Shown: positions 1-18,194, counted from the first letter of the stretch. The stretch is DNA of 64,000 nucleotides from Niameybacter sp. (GCF_036655075.1 NZ_JAVVQU010000002.1:94-64093); one strand, 5' to 3'. A program made the numbers and translations. The notes: generated by a model not told the origin, from the sequence alone.

Positions 1-444
1 AAAGCTCTTGAAAAAGCTATGTTGCAATTAGAGCAAGCTAATGAAGAGGAAAAAGCTATTTTAAAATCACAAATTTCTTCTCTTAAAGATAACTTGAAAG
101 CTGCTGAAGAAAAAATGATGCGTGCAAAATCTATGGCTGAACAAACTAAATCTGGCTTTGTTTATATTATATCCAACGTTGGTTCTTTCGGAGAAAATAT
201 TTATAAAATTGGTATGACTAGAAGATTAGATCCAACAGAACGTATTAATGAGTTGTCAAACGCGTCTGTTCCTTTTGCATTTGATATACATGCTACAATT
301 TATACTGACAATGCCCCTGAATTAGAGCGTAACTTACATAAAATGGTCGGAGATAAAAGAGTTAATAAGGTTAACTTAAGAAAAGAATTCTTTGATGTAT
401 CACTCTCTGAAATTGAAGAAGAAAATTCTGAATCAGTTGCATGA
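1..444 (+). CDS. DUF4041/T5orf172 (GIY-YIG-like, MUG113) domain protein, C-terminal part; 5' end lies outside the window
   Basis: Frame 1 is open from base 1. A coiled-coil stretch is followed by GFVYIISN..IYKIGMTRRLDPTERINELSNASVPFAFDIHA..RVNKVNLRKEFF, the conserved T5orf172 core. Confidence 0.75.
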   Translation, partial: KALEKAMLQLEQANEEEKAILKSQISSLKDNLKAAEEKMMRAKSMAEQTKSGFVYIISNVGSFGENIYKIGMTRRLDPTERINELSNASVPFAFDIHATIYTDNAPELERNLHKMVGDKRVNKVNLRKEFFDVSLSEIEEENSESVA

Positions 445-526
445 TACATGGATTAAGGTTTTAAAGGCATGTACAAAGTAATATTTTGTATATGTCTTTT
501 ATTTTAACTATTAGGGGGAATTAAAA

Positions 527-1474
527 ATGAATTATGATTTTATTGCTATTGACTTTGAAACAGCAAACGAAAAACGTATGAGTGTATGCTGTGCTGCGCT
601 CATATTTTTTAAGAACGGGGTTATTATAGACGAGAAAGAATGGTTGATTAAACCACCTGCTATTTGCAACTATTTCAATGATCTAAACATACAAATCCAT
701 GGTATTACACCTGAGCAAGTCGAAACTGCTCCTGAATTTGATACAATCTGGGAGGAATTCTATAGTTATATTGATGGTGAAATGCTTATTGCTCACAATG
801 CACCATTTGACATGGGTGTATTAACTAACTTAATTCATCACTACAATCTAACATCACCTTCTTTAAATTTTGTATGCACTTGTAACATTGCACGTAAAAC
901 TTGGGATAAGCAAGTAAATTATACACTAAAAAATATTGCTAACCAACTCGGTTACCTATTTAATCACCATGATGCTCATGACGATGCCAAAACATGTGGG
1001 AAAATTCTATTAGAAGCTCTTAAAGTACATGGAGTTAATTCTATAGATGAACTTGCCCAAAAGATCGATATGCGTATTGGTAAATTATCTCCTAGTATCG
1101 GCTATATATCCTGTAGTATTTCTAAAGGCTATAAAGGTCTTGGTGGTAAAAATGATGATGTTCGTGTTAAAGATATTGTTGCAGCCACTGCAGAATTTGA
1201 TGAAGACCACCCTCTATTTGAAAAAAAGGTTGTCTTTACAGGCTCTCTAATCAGTATGACCAGACGTGTAGCCTTGCAAAAAGTTGTAGATTGTGGTGGG
1301 CAAATTGCAAAATCCTTTACAAAAGATACTCATTATTTAGTAATGGGACTTCAGGACTATTCACGCTTTGCAGATGGCAAAGAAAGCTCCAAAACTAAGG
1401 CGGCTAAACAATATATTCAAGATGGTCATTCCGTAGAGATTATAGATGAGGATACTTTCTTGAGAATGTTATAG
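527..1474 (+). CDS. DEDDh (DnaQ/epsilon-like) 3'-5' exonuclease fused to a C-terminal BRCT domain
   Basis: Exo motifs are present: IAIDFETAN (Exo I), AHNAPFDMGVL (Exo II), HHDAHDDAKTCG (Exo III, H-x4-D). The C-terminus KKVVFTGSL..MTRRVALQKVVDCGGQIAKSFTKDTHYLVMG is BRCT-like. An AGGGGGAA RBS lies upstream. Confidence 0.8.
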   Translation: MNYDFIAIDFETANEKRMSVCCAALIFFKNGVIIDEKEWLIKPPAICNYFNDLNIQIHGITPEQVETAPEFDTIWEEFYSYIDGEMLIAHNAPFDMGVLTNLIHHYNLTSPSLNFVCTCNIARKTWDKQVNYTLKNIANQLGYLFNHHDAHDDAKTCGKILLEALKVHGVNSIDELAQKIDMRIGKLSPSIGYISCSISKGYKGLGGKNDDVRVKDIVAATAEFDEDHPLFEKKVVFTGSLISMTRRVALQKVVDCGGQIAKSFTKDTHYLVMGLQDYSRFADGKESSKTKAAKQYIQDGHSVEIIDEDTFLRML

Positions 1475-1483
1475 GTTGGTAAT

Positions 1484-1528
1484 AAAAGTAGGAGGTTTAG
1501 CTAGCTACTAACTCAACCTCCTACTTTT
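1484..1528. terminator. Rho-independent terminator after the exonuclease gene (bidirectional shape)
   Basis: Perfect 14-bp stem AAAAGTAGGAGGTT/AACCTCCTACTTTT with a 17-nt loop, followed by a T-rich run. Confidence 0.7.
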
Positions 1529-1668
1529 ATTTTTATTATTTTTCATCAAGGTTAATATTAAAGTGCCAATTAATAACCGAAATATTAAAATTGTGTTATC
1601 TTTTAATTCTTTATAACTATTGCTTATAATTTTGGTAGATATACTCTAATCAGTGATTTAAGTATTTC

Positions 1669-1698
1669 TTGTATTGCAAACGTGTATAATGTTATAAT
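1669..1698 (+). promoter_or_regulatory. Sigma-A-type promoter with extended -10, driving a structured leader and small ORF
   Basis: TTGTAT (1669-1674), 18-nt spacer, TGtTATAAT (1690-1698). The leader downstream has hairpins (CCGTGC/GCACGG, ATAGAT/ATCTAT) and CCTCC (1745-1749) complementary to the SD at 1788-1792. Confidence 0.4.
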
Positions 1699-1803
1699 AA
1701 TCCAGTGAATGCCGTGCAGGGTGGCACGGGGGTTGTAGGATAATCCTCCTTTGAGGCTATGAGATAGATTTGATCTATGTCACAAGCGGAGGGGGTGTTA
1801 TGA

Positions 1804-1980
1804 ATGGACCATGTACTGCTAATGATAATTATAGTGATTGGTATCACTATTTATCCTAGACGAAATACCTTTTTCGATAAAATTAGATTTAAAGCTGGAC
1901 TAAAAGGCTTTGAATTTGAATTAAGTGCAAAAGAAAAGAGTGTTCCACCCGTCAAAAGCGAACACTCTAACCGTAAATAA
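1804..1980 (+). CDS. 58-aa small membrane peptide (candidate type I toxin), below the ORF-track cut-off
   Basis: Hand translation gives MDHVLLMIIIVIGITIYPRRNTFFDKIRFKAGLKGFEFELSAKEKSVPPVKSEHSNRK: one N-terminal TM helix and a charged tail. A strong SD GGAGGGGG (1788-1795) precedes it. An alternative ATG at 1800 gives only 19 non-hydrophobic aa. Confidence 0.4.
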   Translation: MDHVLLMIIIVIGITIYPRRNTFFDKIRFKAGLKGFEFELSAKEKSVPPVKSEHSNRK

Positions 1981-2060
1981 TCTTTTATGATTTTATTCAT
2001 AGCCCCGAAAATTAAAAACCTTCAGGGAAGCATCAGTGTTAGCGCACTGGTGCTTTCTTT
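1928..2060 (-). ncRNA. Candidate cis-antisense sRNA (antitoxin) convergent with the small ORF
   Basis: A minus-strand extended -10 TGtTATAAT lies at 2075-2067. A minus-strand terminator (AGAGTGTTC/GAACACTCT at 1937-1968, then TTTTCTTTT) sits inside the 3' end of the small ORF. The predicted RNA is about 130 nt. Confidence 0.3.
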
Positions 2061-2062
2061 AC
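2026..2062 (+). terminator. Terminator-like hairpin after the small ORF
   Basis: Stem GCATCAGTG/CACTGGTGC (one G-U pair), extendable by GGAA/TTTC, followed by TTTCTTT. Confidence 0.45.
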
Positions 2063-2204
2063 TTATATTATAACACAACACATTTAAAATTAAACAAGGA
2101 ATTTTAAAAATTAATTCTTAAAATTTAAGTTTCTACTCTCTATTGAATAAACTCACTAGATAAAGTATCATAATGAATATAGACATACGGAAAGGATGAA
2201 TCCG

Positions 2205-2495
2205 ATGGAACAAACACTTAATAAAATTTTAGAGGCACTTCAAGTTCTGCAAAAAGGTCAAGAAGATTTGAAGCAAGTACAAGACGAAATCAAAGCTGAT
2301 GTAAAAGAAATTAATCGTAAAGCTGATATTATTTTTAATCAAACAGCTAACCTCACTGAATTTACTACATCAACCTCTTCAAGTCTTAATTCAATAGAGT
2401 ATAAGATTGACTCTATTGAACAAGAGATTGCAACCATAGAAAAAGTAACTGCTAAAAACTGTTACGACATTACTCATTTAAAAGCTATTAAATAA
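2205..2495 (+). CDS. Hypothetical 96-aa coiled-coil protein immediately upstream of the recombinase
   Basis: ORF 2196..2495. The AAAGGA SD abuts ATG 2196, so it better serves ATG 2205. Heptad-like, Q/E/K-rich sequence with no recognisable catalytic motif. Confidence 0.55.
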   Translation: MEQTLNKILEALQVLQKGQEDLKQVQDEIKADVKEINRKADIIFNQTANLTEFTTSTSSSLNSIEYKIDSIEQEIATIEKVTAKNCYDITHLKAIK

Positions 2496-2562
2496 CAACA
2501 CAAACTCTAAGCTCCTTGTAGAATTCTACTTGGGGCTTGTCTTATATACTAGGAGGCATATC

Positions 2563-3129
2563 ATGAAAGTAGCAATCTACTCCCGTAAGTCCAAGACTTC
2601 TGACAAGGGAGAGTCTATAGATAACCAAATTCATATGTGCAAGGAATACGCTGCTGCACATTTTGAGGATCCGGAGTTTTCCATTTTTGAAGATGAAGGC
2701 TTCTCTGGCGGAAATATTAACCGCCCACAATTTAAAATTCTTATTGATGAAATCAAAAAAGGTATGTATGACGTGCTCATGTGCTATCGCTTAGACCGTA
2801 TCAGTAGAAATGTATCGGACTTCTCTTCTACACTTGATTTATTAACTAAGCATAGTATAGGATTTGTATCTATTAAAGAAAACTTTGATACCACAACACC
2901 TATGGGGCGCGCCATGATTCACATCTCTTCTGTATTCGCCCAGTTAGAAAGAGAGACTATAGCTGAGCGTGTTACAGACAACTTGCTTGAACTGGCCAAA
3001 CTGGGGCGCTGGTTAGGAGGCACTTCTCCTCTAGGCTATAAAAGTCAAAAATTTTCTTATGAAACAGGAGGTAAGACTAAATATTATTCTATTCTTGAGC
3101 AGGATCTGGTCACAGCTTCTATTGTTTAA
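2563..3129 (+). CDS. Large serine recombinase, N-terminal resolvase/catalytic part, ended by an in-frame TAA at 3127-3129
   Basis: MKVAIYSRKSK(T)S..ESIDNQ, YRLDRISRN and FAQLERETIAERV are hallmarks of the serine recombinase catalytic domain. An AGGAGG RBS precedes ATG 2563; the track start at 2530 is TTG. Confidence 0.85.
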   Translation: MKVAIYSRKSKTSDKGESIDNQIHMCKEYAAAHFEDPEFSIFEDEGFSGGNINRPQFKILIDEIKKGMYDVLMCYRLDRISRNVSDFSSTLDLLTKHSIGFVSIKENFDTTTPMGRAMIHISSVFAQLERETIAERVTDNLLELAKLGRWLGGTSPLGYKSQKFSYETGGKTKYYSILEQDLVTASIV

Positions 3130-3855
3130 ATGATTTTTGATAAATACTTAGAACTTGGCAGTATCTCCAAAGTTGAAACCTATCTCCTGCAAAATGGGAT
3201 CAAAACCCCTAAGCAGGCAAACTTTAGTTCTAATGTAATTCGGAATATCCTTATCAACCCTGTTTATACTGTAGCTGATGCTACCACTTACGATTATTTT
3301 AACAAGCTTGAATGCATACTTCCTAAATCCAAAGAGGATTTTAACGGGACTTATGGCCTTATGCCTTACAATAGGCACAAAAAAGGTAAAAGCAATTTAG
3401 CCAATCCCAAGGACAAATGGATCATTTCCATTGGAACACATATGCCCATTATATCTAGTATCGACTGGATAAAGGCGCAAAAACAACTTAAAGCCAATAG
3501 TGACCTCGCCTTCTCCAATACTGGTACTTCGCCTGCTTTACTCAGTGGACTGTTATACTGCAAGCACTGTGGTTCCGTTATGCAAGTTGCTGGGCAAGGT
3601 GTGTTAGCGGATGGGACTGTCTGTTACAACTACAGATGTACCACCAAGACCAAGAGCCGTGGCAAACTTTGCAACAGCGACAATATTAGTAAGGGATATG
3701 CCTTTGATGCACTTGTTGTTAAGAGGGTGCGCAAATTAATAGATGCTGCTACACTACATCAAAAGAAAACCCTTATGCGCAACCTAATTAAGCGTATTGA
3801 GTGGGATGGTACCAATGCGGATATCTTCTTTTACTTTAATCAAAGTCCGTTGTGA
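3130..3855 (+). CDS. Large serine recombinase, C-terminal recombinase and zinc-ribbon part, same frame as 2563..3129
   Basis: IFDKYLELGSISKVETYLLQNGIKTP..IRNILINPVY is the recombinase domain. LLYCKHCGS..YNYRC..KLC is the zinc ribbon. The ATG directly follows the TAA (TAAATG) and no SD is present. Confidence 0.8.
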   Translation: MIFDKYLELGSISKVETYLLQNGIKTPKQANFSSNVIRNILINPVYTVADATTYDYFNKLECILPKSKEDFNGTYGLMPYNRHKKGKSNLANPKDKWIISIGTHMPIISSIDWIKAQKQLKANSDLAFSNTGTSPALLSGLLYCKHCGSVMQVAGQGVLADGTVCYNYRCTTKTKSRGKLCNSDNISKGYAFDALVVKRVRKLIDAATLHQKKTLMRNLIKRIEWDGTNADIFFYFNQSPL

Positions 3856-3859
3856 AGGG

Positions 3860-4135
3860 AACCATCCTACCCTTATTCGTATCATGGTAGCCAAATCACT
3901 TCTTCGTAATGCTAAGCCCATCATCATCGCCATTTCCACTAACGACGGCTTAGGCCTTAACTTAGAAAACATTGGTCATCTGCTCCCTAACCAAAGTGTT
4001 TACTTCGTACCCTTTGGTCAAGACAACTGTGTGGCAAAACCTTACTCCTTAGTGGCTGACTTAAATCTTGTACCCGAAACACTTCAACTTGCTCTAGAAG
4101 GCAAACAAATTCAACCTATGTTGATTAAATACTAA
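3860..4135 (+). pseudogene. dpaB: 3' fragment (about the C-terminal 90 codons) of dipicolinate synthase subunit B
   Basis: AKSLLRNAKPIIIAISTNDGLGLNLENIGHLLPNQSVYFVPFGQDNCVAKPYSLVADL..GKQIQPMLIKY matches the C-terminal half of SpoVFB/DpaB. No N-terminal half and no dpaA lie upstream. The first ~20 codons of ORF 3797 read through element DNA. Confidence 0.7.
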
Positions 4136-4187
4136 GTTAACTATTTAATCACCTTTTTGTTGTTATCCTTTTACACCATGATGACTT

Positions 4188-4973
4188 CTAAGCTTCTTGT
4201 CCGTATACTTCTAACTGTGAAAGGGCAGGGAATGGTGAAGGATCGTCTGCTTTTATTAAGTTTCCAATTTCTACCCATTCAATCATTTTAGCTTCAAACT
4301 GAATCTCTTGAGCCTTATCTGTTTTCACTAAATCCCACACCAGTTGACTCCCATCTGAAAAGGTAAGCGTTGCCTGTTCCCACCATGCATCATGTGGAAA
4401 ATCGGCCCGAGTGTAGAGACGTATCTTATCCGTCACAATGCTTCTTCCAAACTCAACTTTCATGACTGCATTTGGATTTTGGTTAATCCCCCATGACTCA
4501 TAAGGCCATATACCGTGGGAATGATTTTCGCAGTTGCCGTTGATGGCATTTTTTGCAGCAAACACAGACTCGCCTCTTGTCTCTACATTGGCAGAGGCAT
4601 GTGGGAAGCAATGAGTATCCCCATGCTGGTCATATTTGTTCAGGGTAAGATTTTTGTATACACCGATTTCTGCCTTTGTCGCCAAACGCGCCTTCAACAA
4701 ATGTATGTTGCCACTAAAACTTTTAGGTGAATAACAGACCTTTTTCTCTCCAAATGGCACGGCATAAGACATTGTCTCCTCTGTTAAGAGAACAAGACTT
4801 TCGCCTATGGCATCATCTAGTTGAAGCATTAAGAAGACTTGCTTTTCACTACAGGTCACTACAATTTTATCGTCCTCTTCGTAAGGCATACTATGGACTA
4901 AATACACCTCATCTACGCCTGCTGCATGGCTAACTAAGGTCTCATCTTTTTTTAAGATTGCTATTTCTAACAT
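4188..4973 (-). CDS. Hypothetical protein with a discoidin/galactose-binding-like C-terminal domain
   Basis: 261-aa ORF. AKNAINGNCENHSHGIWPYESWG..IRLYTRADFPHDAWW..SQLEVYG resembles F5/8 type C-like carbohydrate-binding modules. It is adjacent to kduD and kduI. Confidence 0.5.
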   Translation of the reverse strand: MLEIAILKKDETLVSHAAGVDEVYLVHSMPYEEDDKIVVTCSEKQVFLMLQLDDAIGESLVLLTEETMSYAVPFGEKKVCYSPKSFSGNIHLLKARLATKAEIGVYKNLTLNKYDQHGDTHCFPHASANVETRGESVFAAKNAINGNCENHSHGIWPYESWGINQNPNAVMKVEFGRSIVTDKIRLYTRADFPHDAWWEQATLTFSDGSQLVWDLVKTDKAQEIQFEAKMIEWVEIGNLIKADDPSPFPALSQLEVYGQEA

Positions 4974-5029
4974 GCACTTTCCTCCTTGAAAAATACATCC
5001 TTAACGATTTAAGGATGTATTAAAATGAA

Positions 5030-7780: not shown

Positions 7781-8950
7781 TTATTTATGCGCTTCTAAAG
7801 CCCATTTTCTTTTCTTCTTTTTATACTCATACGCTCTATCAATATATACTTTAATTAATGCTGCTACAGGCGCAGATAAAATCATACCTACCCCACCGTA
7901 GTAACTGCCGCCTATAATGACTACAATCAAAATCCATACAGGTGGCAAGCCAATTTTATCTCCTACCACTTTAGGCTCAATAAAGTTTCCATCTATTTGT
8001 TGATAGAGCAAAAGTAAGATACATCCTGTCACTCCCAATGACACACTATCTAGTAAGCCTAGTACTAAGGCAAGGACAGCTCCCACCAATGGTCCTACAT
8101 AGGGAATCATATTAGTAATCCCAGCAACCGTTCCAATCAGTACAGCAAAAGGATGTCCAATCATCAGCATCAGTCCCGTAGAGATCGCCCCTACAATCAT
8201 GCCTGCAAAAATAGTACCTACTATAAATCCACCAAGAATTTCATTGATATCTTCTACAACCACTCGCACATAACGCTTGATGGTAGGTGAAAAAATTACA
8301 TCCCCAAAACGGTCTATAGCTGCAAAGAGACGTTCTTTATCTTTAAGAAAGTAAAAGGTTAAAATAAGGGTTGCAATAACATCAATAACCACTCCACTGA
8401 AATTACCTGCCAGCTTCCCAAGTGGCTCTGCCCATGTTAAGAGAAACTCCTTAGACTGTATGAGACTGCTCGTATCCATTCTAGTCTCTTCCAAAATATG
8501 AGTCAGTTCTAAAAGGCTTGTTTGCATGGATTCACCCATCTGGAGTTTGCTTGTAAGTACATTACGCACATTCTCGATAATAGGTGGTACTAAAAAATGC
8601 ACAAGGAGTATGAGTCCAATTCCTACCCCTATAAAAATGAGCGCAATACTTATAAGTCTTATGCCGAGGAAACCACCCTTATTTATATTTCCTTTAGTAT
8701 ATTTTTTATATATTCCTATTAATTTACTTTCTAAACAAATCATTGGGCGATACAAAATATACGCTAATGCTGAGGCATATAAAATAGGTGAAATCACATC
8801 CATAAACTTTCCTGTTTGATGAAGCAAGCTTTGCATGAGCATCCCACCATTTTTAAATAGACTATAGACCCCTAGTACAAGTACTACCATAATCAATAGA
8901 AACGTGCCCCATTCTATGTATTTTTTATATCTTGTCAACCATGTTTTCAT
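7781..8950 (-). CDS. AI-2E family (UPF0118/PerM/YtvI-like) integral membrane transporter
   Basis: 389 aa and multi-TM. The motif GITNMIPYVGPLVGAV..GNFIEPKVVGDKIGLPPV is characteristic of the family. Confidence 0.8.
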   Translation of the reverse strand: MKTWLTRYKKYIEWGTFLLIMVVLVLGVYSLFKNGGMLMQSLLHQTGKFMDVISPILYASALAYILYRPMICLESKLIGIYKKYTKGNINKGGFLGIRLISIALIFIGVGIGLILLVHFLVPPIIENVRNVLTSKLQMGESMQTSLLELTHILEETRMDTSSLIQSKEFLLTWAEPLGKLAGNFSGVVIDVIATLILTFYFLKDKERLFAAIDRFGDVIFSPTIKRYVRVVVEDINEILGGFIVGTIFAGMIVGAISTGLMLMIGHPFAVLIGTVAGITNMIPYVGPLVGAVLALVLGLLDSVSLGVTGCILLLLYQQIDGNFIEPKVVGDKIGLPPVWILIVVIIGGSYYGGVGMILSAPVAALIKVYIDRAYEYKKKKRKWALEAHK

Positions 8951-9679: not shown

Positions 9680-10273
9680 TTAGAGGCTATCCCCTTTGAG
9701 TTTTGTATATTCCTCTGGTGTATTCACATTCATAACCACATTTTCAGCCATTCCCATCTCCTCTAGAGTCACATAACATACATGACTTTGTCTAAGGAGA
9801 TATTGAAGTCGATAATTTTTTTCTTCTATCATCTTTTTCATAAGGGGCAACATTTTTTTAGAATAAATACCTGCAGTGGCATAGGCACGTCCTTGCCTAT
9901 CTTGCACCATGACACCTTCCCATCTTTCATCTACATAACTCATTAACTTTTGAATAAAGCTTCGGTCTACGTGTGGCATATCACAGGCACAAACAAAAAG
10001 ATAAGGTTCTGGAATTTGACTTAAGGCTGTATAAATACCACCTAGTGGACCTATTTCCCTATATGCATCAATCAGTACGGGGTAATCTTCACAAGGTTTA
10101 TTGGCTTTACAATCTACTGAAAGATACACAGGTCCACAACTTTTTAGTTCTTCTACAAGTCCTTCCCAAAAGGGTACCCCTTTATAGGTCAACCACGCCT
10201 TATTTTGTCCCATTCGGCTACTTTTCCCACCCATAAGTAGCAACATAGCTATTGGATTATCTATTAATTTCAT
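9680..10273 (-). CDS. mobA: Molybdenum cofactor guanylyltransferase
   Basis: LLLMGGKSSRMGQNKAWL is an NTP-transferase motif. The protein is 197 aa and sits at the end of the Mo operon. Confidence 0.85.
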   Translation of the reverse strand: MKLIDNPIAMLLLMGGKSSRMGQNKAWLTYKGVPFWEGLVEELKSCGPVYLSVDCKANKPCEDYPVLIDAYREIGPLGGIYTALSQIPEPYLFVCACDMPHVDRSFIQKLMSYVDERWEGVMVQDRQGRAYATAGIYSKKMLPLMKKMIEEKNYRLQYLLRQSHVCYVTLEEMGMAENVVMNVNTPEEYTKLKGDSL

Positions 10274-10279
10274 CTTTGC

Positions 10280-11341
10280 TTACTCCTTTAAATACACCAC
10301 TTTTGATGGTTCGATGCCAAGTATCCCTCTATCTTCTAATAGATTAGGCATACCTTTTTGTAGGCTACATTCCAAATAGATTAACACAGCTTGCTGTGGA
10401 TTCATTTTTTGTATACCCATAGGTTTTAATACATAAATCATCTTATCTAGACTATCTATTTGGCGCACGATTTGGCACATGATTACATTTTCATCCCATG
10501 CTTCTTTTTTAAACATAAATGCATCTTGACCTAGAGCAATAAAATGCGTCCCCTCTGGAATAGGTGGTAACTGTGTTAACGTACATGCCCACTCTGGAAC
10601 ATAAAGTGCTTGCTCCCCTACTTGTTCAACCCTTACCATATTCTTAAAGCCACATATTCTGGCTTCGGCTCTTGTAGAAGGTGATGCAAAGACTTCTTTT
10701 TTGGGGCGAATCTCTGTAAGCTTCCCTCCCTGAATGACCCCTATATAGGTCGCTAAATGGTCTACTTCCTCTTGATTATGGGAGACGAATACAATAGGTT
10801 TAGCAAAAGCTCCCATCACCTCTAACATCACTTGCTCCAGTTCCCATTTTAAATAACTATCTAAAGCTGCAAAGGGTTCATCCAACAATAACACCTTTGG
10901 CTCTGCTGCCAACATTCGTGCAAGCGCTACTCTTTGCTGCTGTCCACCTGAAAGTTGGCTTGGATAATGCTTTTCTAAACCTTCTAATTGAAACAACTTG
11001 ATAAAGTTTGAAATTACTTGTGTGCTTTTAGACTTAGGTACACTGATTCCTATATTTTGTGCAACTGTCATATTGGGAAAAAGGGCATAGTTTTGGAACA
11101 AATAGCCTACACCACGTTCCTGAGGTGGTAAGTTTATATGTTGTTTGGAGTCATATAACACCTTTCCACCTAGTTCAATATATCCCCTATCTGGTGTTTC
11201 AATACCTGCAATGCATTTAAGGGTCATACTTTTTCCACAGCCTGATGCACCCAGTAAGGCTAGGACACCTTGCTCTGTTTCAAAGGCTACCTCTAGTAAA
11301 AAATCTCCCAACTGCTTCTCTATTTCTACAATGAGTTTCAT
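10280..11341 (-). CDS. modC: Molybdate ABC transporter ATP-binding protein
   Basis: Walker A GASGCGKS, signature LSGGQQQR, Walker B LLLDEP, and a C-terminal TOBE-like extension. It is downstream of modA and modB. Confidence 0.85.
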   Translation of the reverse strand: MKLIVEIEKQLGDFLLEVAFETEQGVLALLGASGCGKSMTLKCIAGIETPDRGYIELGGKVLYDSKQHINLPPQERGVGYLFQNYALFPNMTVAQNIGISVPKSKSTQVISNFIKLFQLEGLEKHYPSQLSGGQQQRVALARMLAAEPKVLLLDEPFAALDSYLKWELEQVMLEVMGAFAKPIVFVSHNQEEVDHLATYIGVIQGGKLTEIRPKKEVFASPSTRAEARICGFKNMVRVEQVGEQALYVPEWACTLTQLPPIPEGTHFIALGQDAFMFKKEAWDENVIMCQIVRQIDSLDKMIYVLKPMGIQKMNPQQAVLIYLECSLQKGMPNLLEDRGILGIEPSKVVYLKE

Positions 11342-12018
11342 TTTTTATTCCCTCCCTTTTTTAGCCATTGACCTTGCTGACTTTGTATGAGTTGTAACAA
11401 GACAATCGTACTAAAAGAAATGGCTACCATAATGCCTACCCATTCATAGGCACGGGCGCGGTCTCCATTTTGAACAGCTGTATAGACTGCTGTCGCCAAT
11501 GTCTGTGTTTTCCCTGGGATATTCCCAGCTAGCATAATAGTCGCACCAAATTCACCTAATGCTCTAGCAAAAGATAAAAGTGTCCCTGCCAATACCCCTC
11601 GCCAACAATTAGGAAGGATAATGCTATAAAAAATTTTTTTCTCTGAAAGGCCCAATGTTCTTGCTGCATCCACCCAATCCGGATTCACTTGTTCAAAAGC
11701 ACCTCTTGCTGTGCGATACATAATAGGAAAGGCCACTACCATAGCGGCAATGACCGTACCTGTCCAAGAAAAAACAATTTGAATGCCCCATTTTCCTAAC
11801 CATTCTCCAACTACACTCTGTTTGCCCAAAAGCTGTAGCAAGAAAAAGCCGACTACAGTAGGGGGCAATACCATCGGAAGTGTGAATACTGTGTCTACGA
11901 CAGTTTGCAGACGCTTTAATTTCATTGTCCACCTTGCAGCATAAATACCGATTAAAAAGGTAAGCAAAGTACTACAAAATGCTGTTTTTAAGGATAATAC
12001 CAAAGGGGTTCCATCCAT
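11338..12018 (-). CDS. modB: Molybdate ABC transporter permease
   Basis: 226 aa and multi-TM, with the EAA-type loop DAARTLGLSEKKIFYSIILP. Confidence 0.85.
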   Translation of the reverse strand: MDGTPLVLSLKTAFCSTLLTFLIGIYAARWTMKLKRLQTVVDTVFTLPMVLPPTVVGFFLLQLLGKQSVVGEWLGKWGIQIVFSWTGTVIAAMVVAFPIMYRTARGAFEQVNPDWVDAARTLGLSEKKIFYSIILPNCWRGVLAGTLLSFARALGEFGATIMLAGNIPGKTQTLATAVYTAVQNGDRARAYEWVGIMVAISFSTIVLLQLIQSQQGQWLKKGGNKK

Positions 12019-12032
12019 TATTTTTCCTCTTT

Positions 12033-12869
12033 CTATTTATTTTCCGTTTGATTGCTATAGGGCGTAAAACCATACTTTTCAAAAAGTGTATTAGCTTCTT
12101 TGGACTTCAAAAAGGTTAAGAAATCTTTAGCCGCTTGCTTATGCAGACTATCGGCTATAACCCCTGCTGGATAAATAACTTCATCTGTACTTAACGGGTC
12201 AGCTATAGCCACAACCTCTACCCGTTCTTCTATGGCTGCATCTGTTTGATACACAACACCGCAATCTACATTTTCTGTTGCTACCCAATCCAATACCTGC
12301 CTTACACTTGTTGCCAAGTTGGCTTTACCTAGTACCTCTTCCCACAGGCCTAACCTTTCATAAAGGGTTTTTGTATAGTCTCCTACTGGTACATTTTCAT
12401 TACCTACGGCAATCATTTCAACTTGCTCACTGATGACATCTTCAAATCCACTAAGACGTGGTGTATATCCTTTAGGCTGAATCAAGACAATCTGATTTTT
12501 TAGAAGCTTAATCACACTTTCAGCTTCTACCAGGCCTACTTGACTTAGGCTATTCATCTGCTTCATAGCAGCCGAAATAAAAACATCTGCTGGTGCGCCC
12601 TCTTCAATTTGCCTAGCAAGTGTCCCTGACGCATCAAAAGAAAAGTTAAGTTCTATCTCTGGTGCATAAGTCTGATATGCAGCCTCTACCTCACTGAGTA
12701 CATCGGATAAGCTAGAAGCAGCTAACACATAAAGTTCAACAGGCTCTATTTTTTCTGACTCAGGTAAAGATGCCTTTTGCACAGCACATCCAGCAAGAAA
12801 TGTACTGACTAAAAGAAGCCCTGTACACAAGGCACGTTTCACCTTGTCATTTCTTTTTATGCTTCGCAA
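12033..12869 (-). CDS. modA: Molybdate-binding lipoprotein
   Basis: Lipobox LAGC. AASSLSDV..FSFDASGTLARQIEEGAPADVFISA is typical of ModA. Confidence 0.85.
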   Translation of the reverse strand: MRSIKRNDKVKRALCTGLLLVSTFLAGCAVQKASLPESEKIEPVELYVLAASSLSDVLSEVEAAYQTYAPEIELNFSFDASGTLARQIEEGAPADVFISAAMKQMNSLSQVGLVEAESVIKLLKNQIVLIQPKGYTPRLSGFEDVISEQVEMIAVGNENVPVGDYTKTLYERLGLWEEVLGKANLATSVRQVLDWVATENVDCGVVYQTDAAIEERVEVVAIADPLSTDEVIYPAGVIADSLHKQAAKDFLTFLKSKEANTLFEKYGFTPYSNQTENK

Positions 12870-13306
12870 GGTGTGCCCTCTATACGCGTCATCTCCATAC
12901 CTACTTTTACTTTACCACCTTTAAGTACACGGCAAAACACACCTTCTCTAGGCATAATACAATCCCCCATCTTATGGAAGATTTGACAATGATTGTGACA
13001 TTTTTTCCCAATTTGAGTCAGTTCTAGACGTACCTCTCCACATTCAAACTGTGTGCCTACAGGTAAAGTCTTAAAGTCAAAACCTGCAACGACAAAGTTT
13101 TCACCAAATGCACCAAAGTCTACTTCTGCACCACGCTCACGGAATGCTTCTACTTGTTCATATGAAAGTAGACTAATTTGACGATGCCATTTTCCTGCAT
13201 GTGCATCCCCTTCCATCCCATGATCTTCTAAAATCATAATCTCATCTACTTCGTGTTTTTGTGTTCCTTTTTCTAAACTTGTACACACTGCCATTACTTT
13301 TCCCAT
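12857..13306 (-). CDS. MOSC domain-containing protein
   Basis: 149 aa. ILEDHGMEGDAHAG..RQISLLS..GENFVV..IGKKCH is a MOSC beta-barrel pattern. Confidence 0.7.
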   Translation of the reverse strand: MGKVMAVCTSLEKGTQKHEVDEIMILEDHGMEGDAHAGKWHRQISLLSYEQVEAFRERGAEVDFGAFGENFVVAGFDFKTLPVGTQFECGEVRLELTQIGKKCHNHCQIFHKMGDCIMPREGVFCRVLKGGKVKVGMEMTRIEGTPCEA

Positions 13307-13308
13307 TT

Positions 13309-13821
13309 TTATACCTTCTCTTTCATTTGTGAATTGATAAGCTGCTCTATATGTACGGCTATATCAGCTGCATCATTTAAGTCCCATACGGGTACACTTG
13401 GATGTTCAAAAGCAAAATCACTTGCAATGCCTATAAGTGTCTCCACTTTACACACACTTTCGTTAGAATTTCCATCTCTTATAATTTCAATTTTAGGGTA
13501 GTGGCTTCCTTTAAAGCCTTCTAATAGGATTAGGTCTGCTTCTGGAAAGCAAGCTATAAGTGCCTCTTCCTTTGTATGTTCTTGCCTTTTAACAATCATA
13601 TATTTATGGTCTGAGAAAATGGCCGTCCCATAAGCACCTGCTTCAAAATGTGCATAGGTATCTGTTCCTTTCACATCTGCCTCAAAATCATGTCCATCGT
13701 GTTTAATCGTGGCCACTTTTAGACCTTTTTTTGTGAATTCTGGAATCAACTTGGTAATCAAAGTTGTCTTACCTGAATTTTTCACGCCACTTATTGCAAA
13801 CAAATAAGGCGTTCTTTTCAT
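13309..13821 (-). CDS. mobB: Molybdopterin-guanine dinucleotide biosynthesis adapter protein B
   Basis: P-loop ISGVKNSGKTTL and ATIKHDGHDF. ATG 13821 has an AAGGTGA RBS; the track start at 13857 is TTG. Confidence 0.8.
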   Translation of the reverse strand: MKRTPYLFAISGVKNSGKTTLITKLIPEFTKKGLKVATIKHDGHDFEADVKGTDTYAHFEAGAYGTAIFSDHKYMIVKRQEHTKEEALIACFPEADLILLEGFKGSHYPKIEIIRDGNSNESVCKVETLIGIASDFAFEHPSVPVWDLNDAADIAVHIEQLINSQMKEKV

Positions 13822-13843
13822 ATGCTTCACCTTTTTATCAAAT

Positions 13844-15049
13844 TTAAAGGCGTACAACCGTAACGGTATCGCCTATTTCAAGTCCTGGTGTGCCAGGTGC
13901 TATTTCTACTAAACAATTACAGCCAAGCATGGAGGATAACACCCCGGATGCATGTAAGCCTTTTGGAAGGGTTATTTTCCCTTCTTGGTAAATGGCACGA
14001 ATATATCTGCGATTTTTACTTGCCTTAGGGAAAGCATCTTCCATGACACCTTTTACTAAAGTTGGGCATAACCCTTCATCATGACTCATCTTTGCTAACA
14101 ATGGGCGTGCAAGTAGTTCAAAAGTTGTAACCGCTCCAAAAGGATTCCCTGACAAACTTAGAATCGGTTTCCCTTGGTACAAGGAATAAATGACCGGTGT
14201 GCCTGGTTGTAATTTCACTTTCCAAAAGACACGCTCTGCACCAAGCTGTGGGAGTGCATCATGTAAGATATCTTTTTTCCCAACAGATACACCGCCTGTT
14301 GTTACGATTAAGTCTACATCTTTTTCTACTTGTTCCATAGCTGTAGCTACAGTCTTGGCATCGTCTTTTGGGGTAACAATATGGCGCACTTCTATGCCAA
14401 GCTCTAACATTCTTGCCACTAATAAAGATAAGTTACTATTATAGATTTTACCTGGTAAAAGGGGTTGGCCTGGTGGTGTCACCTCATCGCCTGTTGTCAA
14501 AAGTGCCACTTGTGGCTTTCTATAGACAGGTACTTGGTCATAACCCATACTGGCTAAAATGCCAATTTCAACGTAGCCAATCTTCATGCCTTGTGTGAGC
14601 AGCTGGTCGCCCTTTTTAAAGTCTTCACCTTGGTAACAGTAATTTGCATAAGGCTTGAGGGTCTCATACACTTCTACCACTTCTTCGCCATAGTTAGTAC
14701 TTTCTTGACGGACACAACAATTACACCCTTTTGGAATTGCTGCCCCTGTCATAATGCGTACAGCTTCCCCTGATTGGGGCCTCACCTTACTGGTACATCC
14801 TGCAAAAACCTCATCTACCACTTTAAGTGTTACTGGTTTTTCTTGGGATGCATCATAAATGTCTTCTGCTTGACAAGCATAGCCATCAATAGGCGAACGG
14901 TTAAACGGAGGTTGATCTATAGTTGACTTTTGATCTTTTGCCAAGATACGTCCTAAGCTTTTTAGTAAAGGAACGTTTTCGATTTCTACGATTTCATGTA
15001 CACTTTCCTTGATAAGGCTTAGGGCCTCTTCAACGGTTACACCCACCAT
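13844..15049 (-). CDS. moeA: Molybdopterin molybdenumtransferase
   Basis: 401 aa. PPFNRSPIDGYA, RIMTGAAIP and VTTGGVSVGKKD are MoeA motifs. Confidence 0.85.
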   Translation of the reverse strand: MVGVTVEEALSLIKESVHEIVEIENVPLLKSLGRILAKDQKSTIDQPPFNRSPIDGYACQAEDIYDASQEKPVTLKVVDEVFAGCTSKVRPQSGEAVRIMTGAAIPKGCNCCVRQESTNYGEEVVEVYETLKPYANYCYQGEDFKKGDQLLTQGMKIGYVEIGILASMGYDQVPVYRKPQVALLTTGDEVTPPGQPLLPGKIYNSNLSLLVARMLELGIEVRHIVTPKDDAKTVATAMEQVEKDVDLIVTTGGVSVGKKDILHDALPQLGAERVFWKVKLQPGTPVIYSLYQGKPILSLSGNPFGAVTTFELLARPLLAKMSHDEGLCPTLVKGVMEDAFPKASKNRRYIRAIYQEGKITLPKGLHASGVLSSMLGCNCLVEIAPGTPGLEIGDTVTVVRL

Positions 15050-15051
15050 CT

Positions 15052-16077
15052 TTATACCCCTTTCCCAAAGCTACAGTTTGGATAATGACAAGGTTTACAT
15101 CCTAAGCAGAGTCCACCATGTCCAAGTCGTGCAAAGTCTTTCTTTGTAAGCGTTACACCTGCTGCCACACGTGGTAAGATAAGGTCAAAGATGGTTGCCT
15201 TTGTATACATCACACACCCTGGTAGCCCCATAATAGGTGTGCCATCTGTAAAGTACCCCATCAAGAACATGGCACCTGGTAAAACAGGTGCGCCATAAGT
15301 CACAATTTGTGCGCCTGTCCCAGCAATAGCCCCTGGTGTTAAGTCATCAGGATCCACACTCATGCCACCTGTACAAATAATCAGTTCCATCCCTGCTTCT
15401 TTTAAAGCTAAAATAGCTGCTTGAATCTTTTTTTTATCATCATTGACTGTAATATGTTCTTCTACAGTCATCCCATATAGACTTAACTTTTCACGGATAA
15501 CAGGTGTAAAGGTATCTTGAATTCTGCCATAGTACACTTCACTTCCTGTCGTAACAATCCCAGCTTTTAATGGTCTATAAGGACGTAGACTTGCAAGAGG
15601 GGTCTCTCCTACAACTTTTACAGCCTCTTCCATCTTCACTTTTTCAATAACAAGTGGGATAACGCGCGTGCCAATAAGCTTATCCCCTTTTTGTACAGGC
15701 GAAAAATTATGGCGTGTTGCAATCATAATTTCATCTAAATCATTAACTGCTTCTAGACGCTTAGTATCAATGCAAAAAAGTCCCTCACATCCTGCTACAA
15801 GTTCAATCTTACCTTCTTTAACAGGTGTTGCTGTCATATGCTCATTTTGACATAAGTTACAAAGTATTTCAGCTGCTTCATTTTCGTGAAGTTTCGTTTC
15901 ATCTTTTTCCCATACGTAAAGGTGGTCTTTTCCTAAAGATAATAAAACGGGAATATCCGCTTCAGTTACCACATGTCCTTTACGAAAAGCCACATCTTTG
16001 ACCACATCTTTGACAATTTGTGTAATGTCGTGACAGATAATATGGCCTACTGCTTCTATCGTTTTAATCTGTCTCAT
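15052..16077 (-). CDS. MoeA-related molybdopterin-binding (MoCF_biosynth domain) protein with a Cys-rich C-terminus
   Basis: 341 aa. IVTTGSEV..ICTGGMSVDPDD is the MoCF-binding fold. The C-terminus is GGLCLGCKPCHYPNC. Confidence 0.65.
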   Translation of the reverse strand: MRQIKTIEAVGHIICHDITQIVKDVVKDVAFRKGHVVTEADIPVLLSLGKDHLYVWEKDETKLHENEAAEILCNLCQNEHMTATPVKEGKIELVAGCEGLFCIDTKRLEAVNDLDEIMIATRHNFSPVQKGDKLIGTRVIPLVIEKVKMEEAVKVVGETPLASLRPYRPLKAGIVTTGSEVYYGRIQDTFTPVIREKLSLYGMTVEEHITVNDDKKKIQAAILALKEAGMELIICTGGMSVDPDDLTPGAIAGTGAQIVTYGAPVLPGAMFLMGYFTDGTPIMGLPGCVMYTKATIFDLILPRVAAGVTLTKKDFARLGHGGLCLGCKPCHYPNCSFGKGV

Positions 16078-16089
16078 GTCTTTATCTCC

Positions 16090-16578
16090 TTATTTTCTTG
16101 CACAATTTTGAGCAGTGCCCATCAATATCTCAAGTCCATGTCCAATCTCTGGAAGGATATACTCTAAGCACTCACGAACTGCTTTAGGACTTCCTGGCAA
16201 ATTCACAATTAAAGTCTCCTTGCGAATCCCAGCTGCCGCTCGGCTGAGCATTGCTCTTTTTGTAAACTGCAAGCTATAAGCACGCATAGCTTCTGGAATA
16301 CCGGGTACGAGTCGCTCGGCAACTGTAAGGGTAGCTTCTGGCATACAATCTCTTTTAGAAAATCCTGTTCCGCCTGTTGTTAAAATCAGGTCTGCTTCTT
16401 GCTGATCTGCAAGATGTGCCATCGTCTCTGCTAACAATTGCTCCTCATCTGGAAGCAAAAGACGTGCAACCACTTCATAACCTGCTGCTTCAACCAGTTG
16501 TGCAATAACTGGTCCGCTTAAATCTTCTCGTTCACCTCTATATCCTGAATCACTTGATGTGATAATTGCAACACGCAT
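16090..16578 (-). CDS. mogA: Molybdenum cofactor biosynthesis protein (MogA/MoaB type adenylyltransferase)
   Basis: 162 aa. RVAIITSSDS and ILTTGGTGFSKRD are MogA/MoaB motifs. Confidence 0.8.
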   Translation of the reverse strand: MRVAIITSSDSGYRGEREDLSGPVIAQLVEAAGYEVVARLLLPDEEQLLAETMAHLADQQEADLILTTGGTGFSKRDCMPEATLTVAERLVPGIPEAMRAYSLQFTKRAMLSRAAAGIRKETLIVNLPGSPKAVRECLEYILPEIGHGLEILMGTAQNCARK

Positions 16579-16581
16579 TTC

Positions 16582-17565
16582 TCATCCTCCTATTTGCGAC
16601 ATACTGCGCTGTTCTTCTTGATCGATTTTAGTCTCATGAAAATGGTGACTTTCAGGCTTATGATAAATAGCTTCTTCTATCGCCTTTGTTAAAGTTTCAT
16701 CGCTCTCTCCTTGGCGAATAATACTTTTTAAGTCCACCCCTTTTTCATATTGCAAGCATGTCTTGAAATAACCCTCTGCCGTTAACCTTACGCGATTACA
16801 CGTTGCACAAAACTTATGGCTGATGGCACTAATAAATCCAATCTTACCTTCAAATCCCGGTAAATCATAATATTCACAAGGGCCTTCACCTAATGGTTTA
16901 TGATAAGGGGACATCTTTCCATAGGTATTTTCAAGGACTGCTTTCACCTCTTTTTGGCTACGAAATGGCAGGTCTTTGCCATAGCCTATAGGCATGACTT
17001 CAATAAAACGTATATGCACAGGTTGGGTTCTTGCAAGTTCCACTAAACGTGCAAAATCAGAGGTTTGAGTTGTAACAGGTACGCAATTAATTTTAACCGT
17101 TAACCCAGGGTACTTAGCTGCACTTTCAATCCCTTCTACAACCTCTTGTAAACCCTCTCTTCTTGTAATGCGCTTATACTCAGCCCTATCCAATGTATCT
17201 AAACTCACATTAATCCCATCAAGTCCTGCTTCAACTAAGTGGCTTAATTGTTTTTTGAGTAGTACACCATTGGTTGTAAGGGTTACTTTTTCAATTCCAG
17301 GAATGGCTTTAAGTGCTTTAATAAGCACATGGACATCTTTACGCACTAAAGGCTCTCCGCCTGTTAGTTTAATTTTTTTCATCCCTAATGTGGCACCTAC
17401 TGTACAAATCCTAATAATTTCTTCATAAGTCAGGATTTTATCTGAATGCATAAGTTCGATGCCTTCTTCGGGCATGCAATAGATGCATCGATTGTTGCAT
17501 TTATCCGTAAGTGATACACGTAAATAATCAATACCTCTACCTTGTCCATCTTTAATCATCGTCAT
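16582..17565 (-). CDS. moaA: GTP 3',8-cyclase (radical SAM)
   Basis: CNNRCIYCMP radical-SAM cluster and C-terminal CATCNRVRLTAEG. ATG 17565 has a GAAGGA RBS. Confidence 0.9.
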   Translation of the reverse strand: MTMIKDGQGRGIDYLRVSLTDKCNNRCIYCMPEEGIELMHSDKILTYEEIIRICTVGATLGMKKIKLTGGEPLVRKDVHVLIKALKAIPGIEKVTLTTNGVLLKKQLSHLVEAGLDGINVSLDTLDRAEYKRITRREGLQEVVEGIESAAKYPGLTVKINCVPVTTQTSDFARLVELARTQPVHIRFIEVMPIGYGKDLPFRSQKEVKAVLENTYGKMSPYHKPLGEGPCEYYDLPGFEGKIGFISAISHKFCATCNRVRLTAEGYFKTCLQYEKGVDLKSIIRQGESDETLTKAIEEAIYHKPESHHFHETKIDQEEQRSMSQIGG

Positions 17566-17566
17566 C

Positions 17567-18055
17567 TTATCCTTCTTTTTTATTAATGAAGTGGCCACTT
17601 TTACCACCTATCTTCTCTTCTAAATGGACCTGTGTAATCTCCATTGTTTTATCAATAGCTTTGCACATATCATAAATGGTTAAAAGAGCAATATTAACCC
17701 CTATAAGCGCTTCCATTTCTACACCCGTTTGCCCCTCGGTTTTCACTGTACAGCTTGCAGTGATTGCCAAGTTTTGTGCATCTATTTCAAAATCTACTTT
17801 GCATTTTTGAATCATTAAAGGATGACACATAGGAATCAGGTTAGAAGTTTGTTTAACCGCCATAATCCCAGCTACTCTTGCTACACCAAGGACATCACCT
17901 TTTTTTACGTTTCCTGCAAGGATTTGCTCCATAACTGCTAGATTGACAAGGATTTTCCCTTTTGCAGTAGCTGTTCTAGATGTATGGCCTTTTTCAGAAA
18001 CATCCACCATAATTGCATTGCCTTTTTCATCAAAATGGGTTAATTGCTCACTCAT
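17567..18055 (-). CDS. moaC: Cyclic pyranopterin monophosphate synthase
   Basis: [34 protein letters not shown] are MoaC motifs. The start is uncertain (18055 or 18088). Confidence 0.85.
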
Positions 18056-18194
18056 TCTTTTATCCGCTCGCTTTCTTAAACATAACATTAGTTATTTTTT
18101 TGTCACATGAAATGGATTATATCATTTATGTTAACGCTTTTCAACTTAGACAATTATTTCACAATATAGTTTTAGTTTACAGTTATGTTCTAAC

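Follow-up and report, generated by a model that had tools for sequence, protein, structure and literature searches.

The excision, in the mother cell, of elements that split sporulation genes is a classic programmed DNA rearrangement in bacteria, and the elements of this kind named in the papers cited here are few and come mostly from Bacillus. They include skin in sigK (recombinase SpoIVCA) and SPbeta in spsM (SprA/SprB) of Bacillus subtilis, and skinCd of C. difficile (PMC4191935, PMC5025042, PMC5499854), together with gin of B. cereus ATCC 10987, a small element in gerE that is not a prophage (PMC5595907). According to the summaries of Abe et al. (2013) in PMC10747680, PMC4191935 and PMC6957869, a prophage-like element, vfbin, is found in spoVFB (dpaB) of Bacillus weihenstephanensis KBAB4. 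Phage 21 and e14, for their part, integrate in icd of E. coli (PMC12540744). The locus analyzed here lies in a stretch of 64,000 nucleotides of Niameybacter sp. (GCF_036655075.1 NZ_JAVVQU010000002.1:94-64093), referred to below as the window, in which a gene for a large serine recombinase (LSR; 2563-3855, + strand) ends 26-34 bases upstream of a fragment of dpaB, the gene of dipicolinate synthase subunit B. On balance, this locus is probably the decayed right end of a dpaB-targeting LSR mobile element, and the fragment a non-functional, duplicated 3' end of the gene.

The features that make up the junction are the following:

2563-3129, + strand: LSR pseudogene part 1, with the catalytic (resolvase) domain, 188 codons (Pfam Resolvase, E 5e-38), closed by an in-frame TAA at 3127-3129
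3130-3855, + strand: LSR pseudogene part 2, with the recombinase and zinc-ribbon domains (Pfam Recombinase, Zn_ribbon_recom), TGA stop at 3853-3855
3868-3894, no strand: element-side (P) arm of the attR-type junction, aligned with the attR of Niameybacter massiliensis and of the related locus L110
3889-4157, + strand: block R, 269 bp, the last 247 bases of dpaB plus 22 downstream, a perfect match to the 3' end of the species' own intact dpaB
3889-4135, + strand: dpaB 3' fragment within block R, the last ~82 codons (247 bases), TAA stop at 4133-4135

In a structure search, the translation of 3797-4132 matches the DpaB structures 3lqk (residues 113-195 of 201, E 1.3e-24) and 3mcu (residues 111-192, E 8.5e-23). 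The comparison with profiles, which could have shown that 3860-4135 is not DpaB, returned the DpaB family through TIGR02852 (profile positions 106-187 of 187, E 2.3e-31) and NCBIfam NF006161 (positions 111-193 of 196, E 3.9e-34); Pfam gave nothing at E<=0.01 for the fragment. The original prediction of a C-terminal part of DpaB at about 3860-4135 is thus borne out, as is its statement that neither dpaA nor the N-terminal half of dpaB precedes it, given that both are absent from the open reading frames (ORFs) and the domain matches of the window. The NF006161 score, 118 bits, falls below the family cut-off of 156 for the sole reason that some 110 N-terminal residues are absent, a full-length DpaB of about 195 aa being expected to lie above it, and the fragment is a true piece of the DpaB family and no member gene. 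Comparison with intact DpaB proteins places the start of the homology at about 3881-3889, downstream of the recombinase stop, and the part of the ORF from 3797 to 3880 is an accidental upstream extension which overlaps the recombinase and does not belong to DpaB. The end of the recombinase does not, then, overlap dpaB in another frame, as had been proposed. In Niameybacter sp. metagenome bins, the fragment has a counterpart with 100% identity, annotated as a “hypothetical protein”, and its best relatives are likewise short C-terminal fragments, on long contigs.

The recombinase carries the Y-x-R-x-S serine motif in its N-terminal resolvase domain (it begins MKVAIYSRKS..., with Ser10), and PF00239 (E 5e-38) spans residues 3-150, while the second ORF matches PF07508 (E 2e-17) and PF13408 (E 3e-9), i.e., it has the recombinase and zinc-ribbon features, and the LSR also matches the phrog_95 integrase (E 1e-61). 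By alignment it is 83% identical to the enzyme of N. massiliensis, and three orthologues are each exactly 540 aa long. The domains and the TGA at 3853-3855 therefore agree with the large serine recombinase first proposed, which is not, however, a single ORF, as the TAA at 3127-3129 aligns with the invariant K189 (AAG or AAA) of the three orthologues. The same comparison reveals the loss of 110 consecutive residues, equivalent to orthologue positions 393-502, which make up the coiled-coil motif of the zinc-ribbon domain and were deleted in frame at about 3738/3739, so that no uninterrupted polypeptide with a coiled-coil insert in the zinc ribbon is encoded. A sequencing error as the source of the TAA is ruled out, given that the codon is found in all the other assemblies of the species examined (at least 12), and it is not specific to one sample either; reading it through an alternative genetic code is ruled out by dpaB itself, which terminates with TAA. 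In large serine recombinases, the coiled coil is required for synapsis and for control by the directionality factor. Given the nonsense codon at position 189 and the loss of the coiled coil, the LSR of the window is dead, and the excision of any DNA by its product cannot be expected. The window copy thus has no intact site-specific recombinase at the edge of the element, and developmental excision driven by a recombinase is unlikely here.

The premature stop is followed directly by an ATG (TAAATG, 3127-3132), where the orthologues have Lys-Leu or Lys-Ile, so that gene callers report a pair of neighboring “recombinase family” proteins (188 and 241 aa). A stop-start of this type could permit coupled translation, and both ORFs are otherwise well conserved, with 83% identity to the intact orthologue, which might suggest a working recombinase in two pieces, in which the catalytic ORF of 188 aa and the DNA-binding ORF of 241 aa, joined at TAA-ATG, act on the junction. 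This is extremely improbable, however, as the entire coiled-coil motif is absent, no partner attachment (att) site is known, and the nonsense codon occurs in this species only, against Lys-Leu or Lys-Ile in the three orthologues. The assemblies also present a T/C polymorphism at 3853, where C (one assembly) changes TGA to CGA and prolongs the ORF of the LSR by 18 codons into the dpaB fragment, yielding variants of 259 aa. No recombination directionality factor (RDF) was recognized among the small ORFs of the window. The viral relatives of the LSR are at most 50% identical to it, apart from the N. massiliensis prophage region itself, and those in GenBank phages less than 40%.

The elements to which this copy can be compared are found in N. 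massiliensis and other Cellulosilyticaceae, where the 540-aa orthologues lie at the right end of elements of 6.4-46 kb which split dpaB at the same codon as in the window, with both halves present and with typical LSR att sites. The insertion site is fixed, at the codons Ala-Lys-Ser, about residue 115 of DpaB. In the complete type genome of N. massiliensis, a prophage of 45,914 bp separates an N-terminal DpaB fragment of 120 aa, which adjoins phage lysis and tail genes, from a C-terminal fragment of 83 aa, which is preceded by the intact 540-aa LSR and a phage lysogeny module; other strains of N. massiliensis have an uninterrupted dpaA-dpaB, i.e., an empty site. In the contig L109 (Logan SRR25909051, 17.9 kb), the dpaB halves are 6,358 bp apart around a non-phage element that encodes a metallophosphatase and a helicase in addition to its 540-aa LSR, and in a further host a prophage with an LSR of the same type adjoins the C-terminal half of dpaB. 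The N-terminal DpaB fragments retrieved from 17 related taxa all end at “...TPV(V/L)LAA/N...” (the slash marking the split). When species-representative genomes were scanned with the dpaB fragment, all 80 of the 80 loci retrieved had an intact dpaB (no Niameybacter was retrieved, the 8-residue patterns being too strict), and the split is therefore a lineage-specific, element-borne state.

The neighboring gene is also a target in these relatives. In N. massiliensis (L097 8411-10004, L101 4411-6004, and L102), a second prophage with a different enzyme, a serine recombinase of 486 aa, is inserted at nucleotide 775/776 of the 873 of dpaA, the last 98 bases of which remain beside dpaB, so that, in the type genome, one prophage lies in dpaA and another in dpaB. 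Directly past the 540-aa LSR comes the end of a 91.9-kb IMG/VR entry, which may cover both of these prophages. Both genes of the operon are likewise split by small elements in L109 (2989-16420), where dpaA is interrupted at about codon 135 by an element of about 5.5 kb with a 565-aa serine recombinase, a nitroreductase, and a MarR regulator.

The comparison of attB, attL, and attR in N. massiliensis yields a GCAAA core, and the attP rebuilt from its attL and attR, CCCATATTCATATCATGGT-AGCAAATGCA-ACCATGATATGAATATGGG, consists of perfect 19-bp inverted arms flanking a central AA, a palindrome of the kind that a large serine recombinase would be expected to use; the pattern of a free-phage attP was not found among viral contigs. 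The attR of N. massiliensis, CCCATATTCATATCATGGTAGCAA/A, and that of L110 can both be aligned with the junction of the window, CCCTTATTCGTATCATGGTAGCCA/A, an alignment that would place the crossover dinucleotide AA of the window at 3893-3894, i.e., just outside the range of about 3845-3885 previously suggested for the crossover. In the species of the window, an attR-type junction with the central AA is seen, and an attL was not found. The proposal to define the att sites by aligning the two halves of the gene to an intact dpaB was fruitful for the core and the attP, which N. massiliensis supplied, and not for the attL of this species.

With vfbin, insofar as the published summaries describe it, this group of elements shares the target gene and the interruption of a mother-cell sporulation gene by a prophage or prophage-like element, and N. 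massiliensis, L109, and L110 have a layout of the vfbin type, with the serine recombinase at the edge, beside the 3' half of dpaB. The hosts differ, however, Bacillus on the one side and a lineage of the Clostridia (Cellulosilyticaceae) on the other, and the likeness to vfbin as summarized holds at the level of the target gene and the class of element; the window copy, which has a dead LSR and lacks a matching 5' half, cannot be regarded as its working counterpart. Similarly, skin, SPbeta, and skinCd also have a large serine recombinase gene at the edge of the element, beside one half of a sporulation gene, and a short crossover core with att arms that form imperfect inverted repeats, but their recombinases are intact, have an RDF partner, and were shown to excise during sporulation, unlike that of the window copy. 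Of the layout of sporulation-gene excision elements attributed to this locus, what holds is the attR-type junction of an LSR family in dpaB, and what does not is a working switch. The non-phage element of L109, with 6.4 kb and a 540-aa LSR, resembles gin, and the family thus includes minimal forms composed of a recombination unit plus cargo. The remnant in the window (a defense gene fragment, an exonuclease, and the LSR) is also similar to gin in size, as far as it is visible, but gin is excised and gerE restored, whereas this remnant cannot excise by means of its own LSR.

The evidence that sets the window apart from its relatives is the dpaB of the species itself. A profile built from the N-terminal halves of the closest intact DpaB proteins was used to search a collection of 5.8 billion proteins, and the DpaB proteins retrieved for this species were an intact one of 195 aa, two partial ones (132-133 aa) that read through the split point, and the C-terminal fragment. 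No attL-type N-terminal half of DpaB was found for this species in that collection, in the same search that returned those of 17 related taxa, and all the dpaB 5' parts of the species run seamlessly into a 3' part identical to window 3889-4157. The search for a dpaB 5' part preceded by dpaA, as suggested by the original prediction, did then recover dpaA-dpaB, as an intact gene and not as a split half. Three contigs (L103, L104, and L106) carry the intact dpaA-dpaB, in the order amylase, dpaA, dpaB, and are 100% identical to the window in 3889-4157 (0 differences in 269 bases), with the identity ending exactly 22 bases past the dpaB stop, after 4157. Past this boundary, L103 and L104 continue into unrelated DNA, denominated X, in which a terminator-like hairpin and the beginning of another gene can be recognized, while L106, a k=31 contig, terminates at exactly this point. 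A fourth contig, L105, continues past block R as window 4158-5024 into the DUF7402 gene and represents an element-free (empty) allele. In at least six cases, DpaA or intact DpaB and the dead LSR occur in the same assembly, with accession numbers 52 to 2,446 apart, and in one assembly the accessions MEG2374983-86 are consecutive across two contigs that carry DpaA/DpaB and the dead LSR.

These data bear directly on the arrangement originally predicted, in which dpaB is truly split, with its 5' half and dpaA at the left end of an element excised in the sporulating mother cell. Exactly such a layout, with intact recombinases, exists in the relatives, the fragment has kept 100% identity with the functional allele, and the left flank is unseen; only the 3' part of dpaB adjoins the element here. 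A truly split gene is nevertheless very improbable, given an LSR with a premature stop and no coiled coil, the absence from this species of an attL-type N-terminal DpaB in a search that retrieved such proteins from 17 related taxa, and the fact that each dpaB 5' part of the species reads straight into its 3' part. Most likely, the window fragment is a leftover copy and not the half of a split gene.

The order that would account for the two types of contig is amylase, dpaA, intact dpaB (first copy of the block), X, an unrecovered stretch, the fragment of a PD-Lambda-1-like defense gene, exonuclease, dead LSR, second copy of the block (the window fragment), and DUF7402. This arrangement could have begun with the aberrant excision of an ancestral dpaB prophage, which would have taken with it the 3' end of dpaB up to 22 bases past the stop, and the captured piece may subsequently have served for the homologous recombination of the excised DNA into an intact dpaB. 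The outcome would be a whole dpaB and a dispensable LSR, which, once dispensable, would have decayed as a consequence. The remnant could now be lost only through homologous recombination between the 269-bp copies, which would produce the empty allele of L105, and the fragment would be a non-functional duplicate, for which developmental excision would be neither needed nor possible.

A parallel to this arrangement is provided by phage 21 and e14, in which the element supplies a copy of the 3' end of icd, so that the gene stays intact and a displaced duplicate of the 3' fragment lies at the far end of the element. An intact host gene with a displaced 3' duplicate is the arrangement inferred for the window locus, but the integrases of phage 21 and e14 are of the tyrosine type, and the duplication belongs to the ordinary design of their att sites, whereas in the window locus it would be a secondary accident in a serine-recombinase element.

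The duplicated order is favored because it explains why the block has an attR-type edge on the left and ends sharply on the right, 22 bases past the stop, why no attL is found, why contigs of both types occur in the same assemblies, and why the block retains full identity (zero substitutions) beside an LSR that has been disabled twice. On the other hand, some observations weigh against it. The DNA between X and window base 1 is unrecovered, and the two contig types have no physical link; the assemblies are metagenome bins, seemingly from one study to judge by the run and accession numbers, and presence in the same bin may mean co-resident strains. In three bins, dpaA occurs without the LSR and, in six, the LSR without dpaA, while the sequencing-run assemblies give the exonuclease gene in six runs and a full-length dpaA in only about two. 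Furthermore, L106 runs from dpaA into the start of the block unbroken, where a break would be expected if the LSR junction were equally abundant in that sample, and the origin by aberrant excision is itself a model.

The uneven bins, the uneven detection of the exonuclease gene and dpaA across the runs, and the unbroken passage of L106 across the block start are all points in favor of a mixture of strains, in which the strain with the remnant has lost dpaA, the 5' half of dpaB, and the left part of the element, and the intact contigs derive from co-resident strains. The fragment would then be the dead stump of a strain without DpaAB. Such a mixture would also accommodate the failure to find attL, the dead LSR, L105 as an element-free allele in the population, and the dpaA-dpaB contigs, which are all of about 5 kb and share a left end, as one arm of a strain bubble in an assembly graph would. 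It leaves unexplained, however, why the intact-dpaB contigs exit into new DNA exactly 22 bases past the stop and why the LSR-bearing contigs L002 and L012 end 26 bases beyond that exit point, it requires the same pair of strains in at least six samples, and some divergence between a neutral stump and the live gene would be expected, against 0 differences in 269 bases. A mixture of strains is the main rival of the duplicated order and the less likely of the two. Whether by duplication or by a mixture of strains, the fragment is not half of a gene rejoined by the LSR of the window.

The contigs with amylase, dpaA, and dpaB (L103, L104, L096, and L108) begin within about 110 bases of each other, some 4.6 kb upstream of dpaB, so that in several assemblies this segment of about 5 kb has a break at either end. 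For the left break of these contigs, neither an RNA gene nor a repeat was found as an explanation, and neither the window nor the dpaA-dpaB contigs gave any match in Rfam or tRNA scans, so no RNA gene lies behind the contig breaks. If X were an insertion sequence, this would account for the assembly breaks, a candidate explanation only; the 22-residue ORF start of X has no match in Pfam or PADLOC, there is no long ORF on the opposite strand, and no copy of X was found in the window or in the other loci.

To the left of the recombinase, the window carries the remaining cargo of the element:

1-444, + strand: PD-Lambda-1-like defense gene (DUF4041 + T5orf172/GIY-YIG-type), 3' third, with its frame open at the window start (Pfam T5orf172, MUG113; phrog_1847)
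527-1474, + strand: DEDDh (DnaQ-like) 3'-5' exonuclease with a C-terminal BRCT (Pfam RNase_T, BRCT; PRK06195, E 2.8e-86; phrog_192, DNA polymerase exonuclease subunit)
1804-2495, + strand: two small ORFs, 1804-1980 (58 aa) and 2196-2495 (99 aa, coiled-coil-like), both annotated as genes in several of the assemblies

The PADLOC match of the first gene to PD-Lambda-1 (E 5e-77) covers profile positions 296-446 of 491, and this is the only part held by the window and by all the public contigs, the N-terminal portion of about 290 residues of a full-length protein of about 490 aa being absent; when homologues were sought in this species, only partial PD-Lambda-1-like proteins, and no full-length one, were retrieved. 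The 99-aa ORF matches phrog_5553 (E 1.4e-9), and the G+C content is 31-35% in window 1-3000, against 37-42% in the chromosome to the right. In the first ORF, a G/A polymorphism at 307 replaces Asp with Asn. The public contigs with the first genes of the window all end 30-52 bases to the left of window base 1, and all break within about 20 bases of one another inside the PD-Lambda-1-like gene; this clustering suggests a repeat or a rearrangement junction at that point. Exact-pattern scans of viral and metagenome contigs with this left extension and with the sequence of X found nothing. A 15-base sequence, GAGGCCACTGAAAAA, is found in X (L103 5251-5265) and, inverted, 22-36 bases to the left of window base 1, a match that is at chance level against the full set of loci and may reflect chance or be the trace of a rearrangement.

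To the right of 4158, the window consists of ordinary chromosome, which begins with the following gene:

4188-4973, - strand: DUF7402 gene (Pfam DUF7402), the first chromosomal gene to the right, which also follows the intact dpaB in L105

The core genes of this region include kduD, kduI, an AraC regulator, molybdate uptake, molybdenum cofactor synthesis, molybdopterin oxidoreductase, arylsulfotransferase, pnp, ribF, infB, nusA, ispG, dxr, tsf, rny, and cinA. The arylsulfotransferase (ASST, Pfam E 4e-108; 25848-27716, - strand), which is unrelated to the dpaB finding, lies beside the molybdopterin oxidoreductase and a large cluster of molybdenum-cofactor genes (9680-18088). An AI-2E family transporter (7781-8950, 389 aa) appears in two pieces (207 + 181 aa) at L001 7327-8503, a split call that is probably due to a frameshift or an assembly indel.

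The wider family of elements in the Cellulosilyticaceae represents a worthwhile new set of members of this class, with developmental excision in the family being putative, and the window copy is a fossil of a known kind of element. The relatives widen the reach of dpaB as a target to gut and environmental Clostridia (Niameybacter, Cellulosilyticum, and allied uncultured genomes), with one conserved insertion codon used by elements that range from a 46-kb prophage to a 6.4-kb mini-element, and with both dpaA and dpaB interrupted in the genomes of some relatives. The window copy itself is mainly cautionary, given that a recombinase pointing at a gene fragment is insufficient for calling a developmental switch, although it may exemplify the loss of dependency on excision. 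For annotation, the “hypothetical” or “HFCD family” proteins of 83-106 aa and the two “recombinase family” proteins found here are best labeled as pseudogene pieces.

It is possible, as a tentative account of the whole history, that a dpaB-targeting LSR prophage acquired the 3' part of the very gene in which it inserts and, on returning through homologous recombination, rebuilt an intact dpaB beside itself, after which the LSR decayed. If so, the locus would record the escape of a spore-former from a gene-splitting element. Taken together with the relatives, the spoVF operon of the Cellulosilyticaceae would be a hotspot for three serine recombinases (those of 486 aa and 565 aa in dpaA, and that of 540 aa in dpaB), and some genomes would need two independent excisions to produce dipicolinate, a dependency which this genome would have shed.

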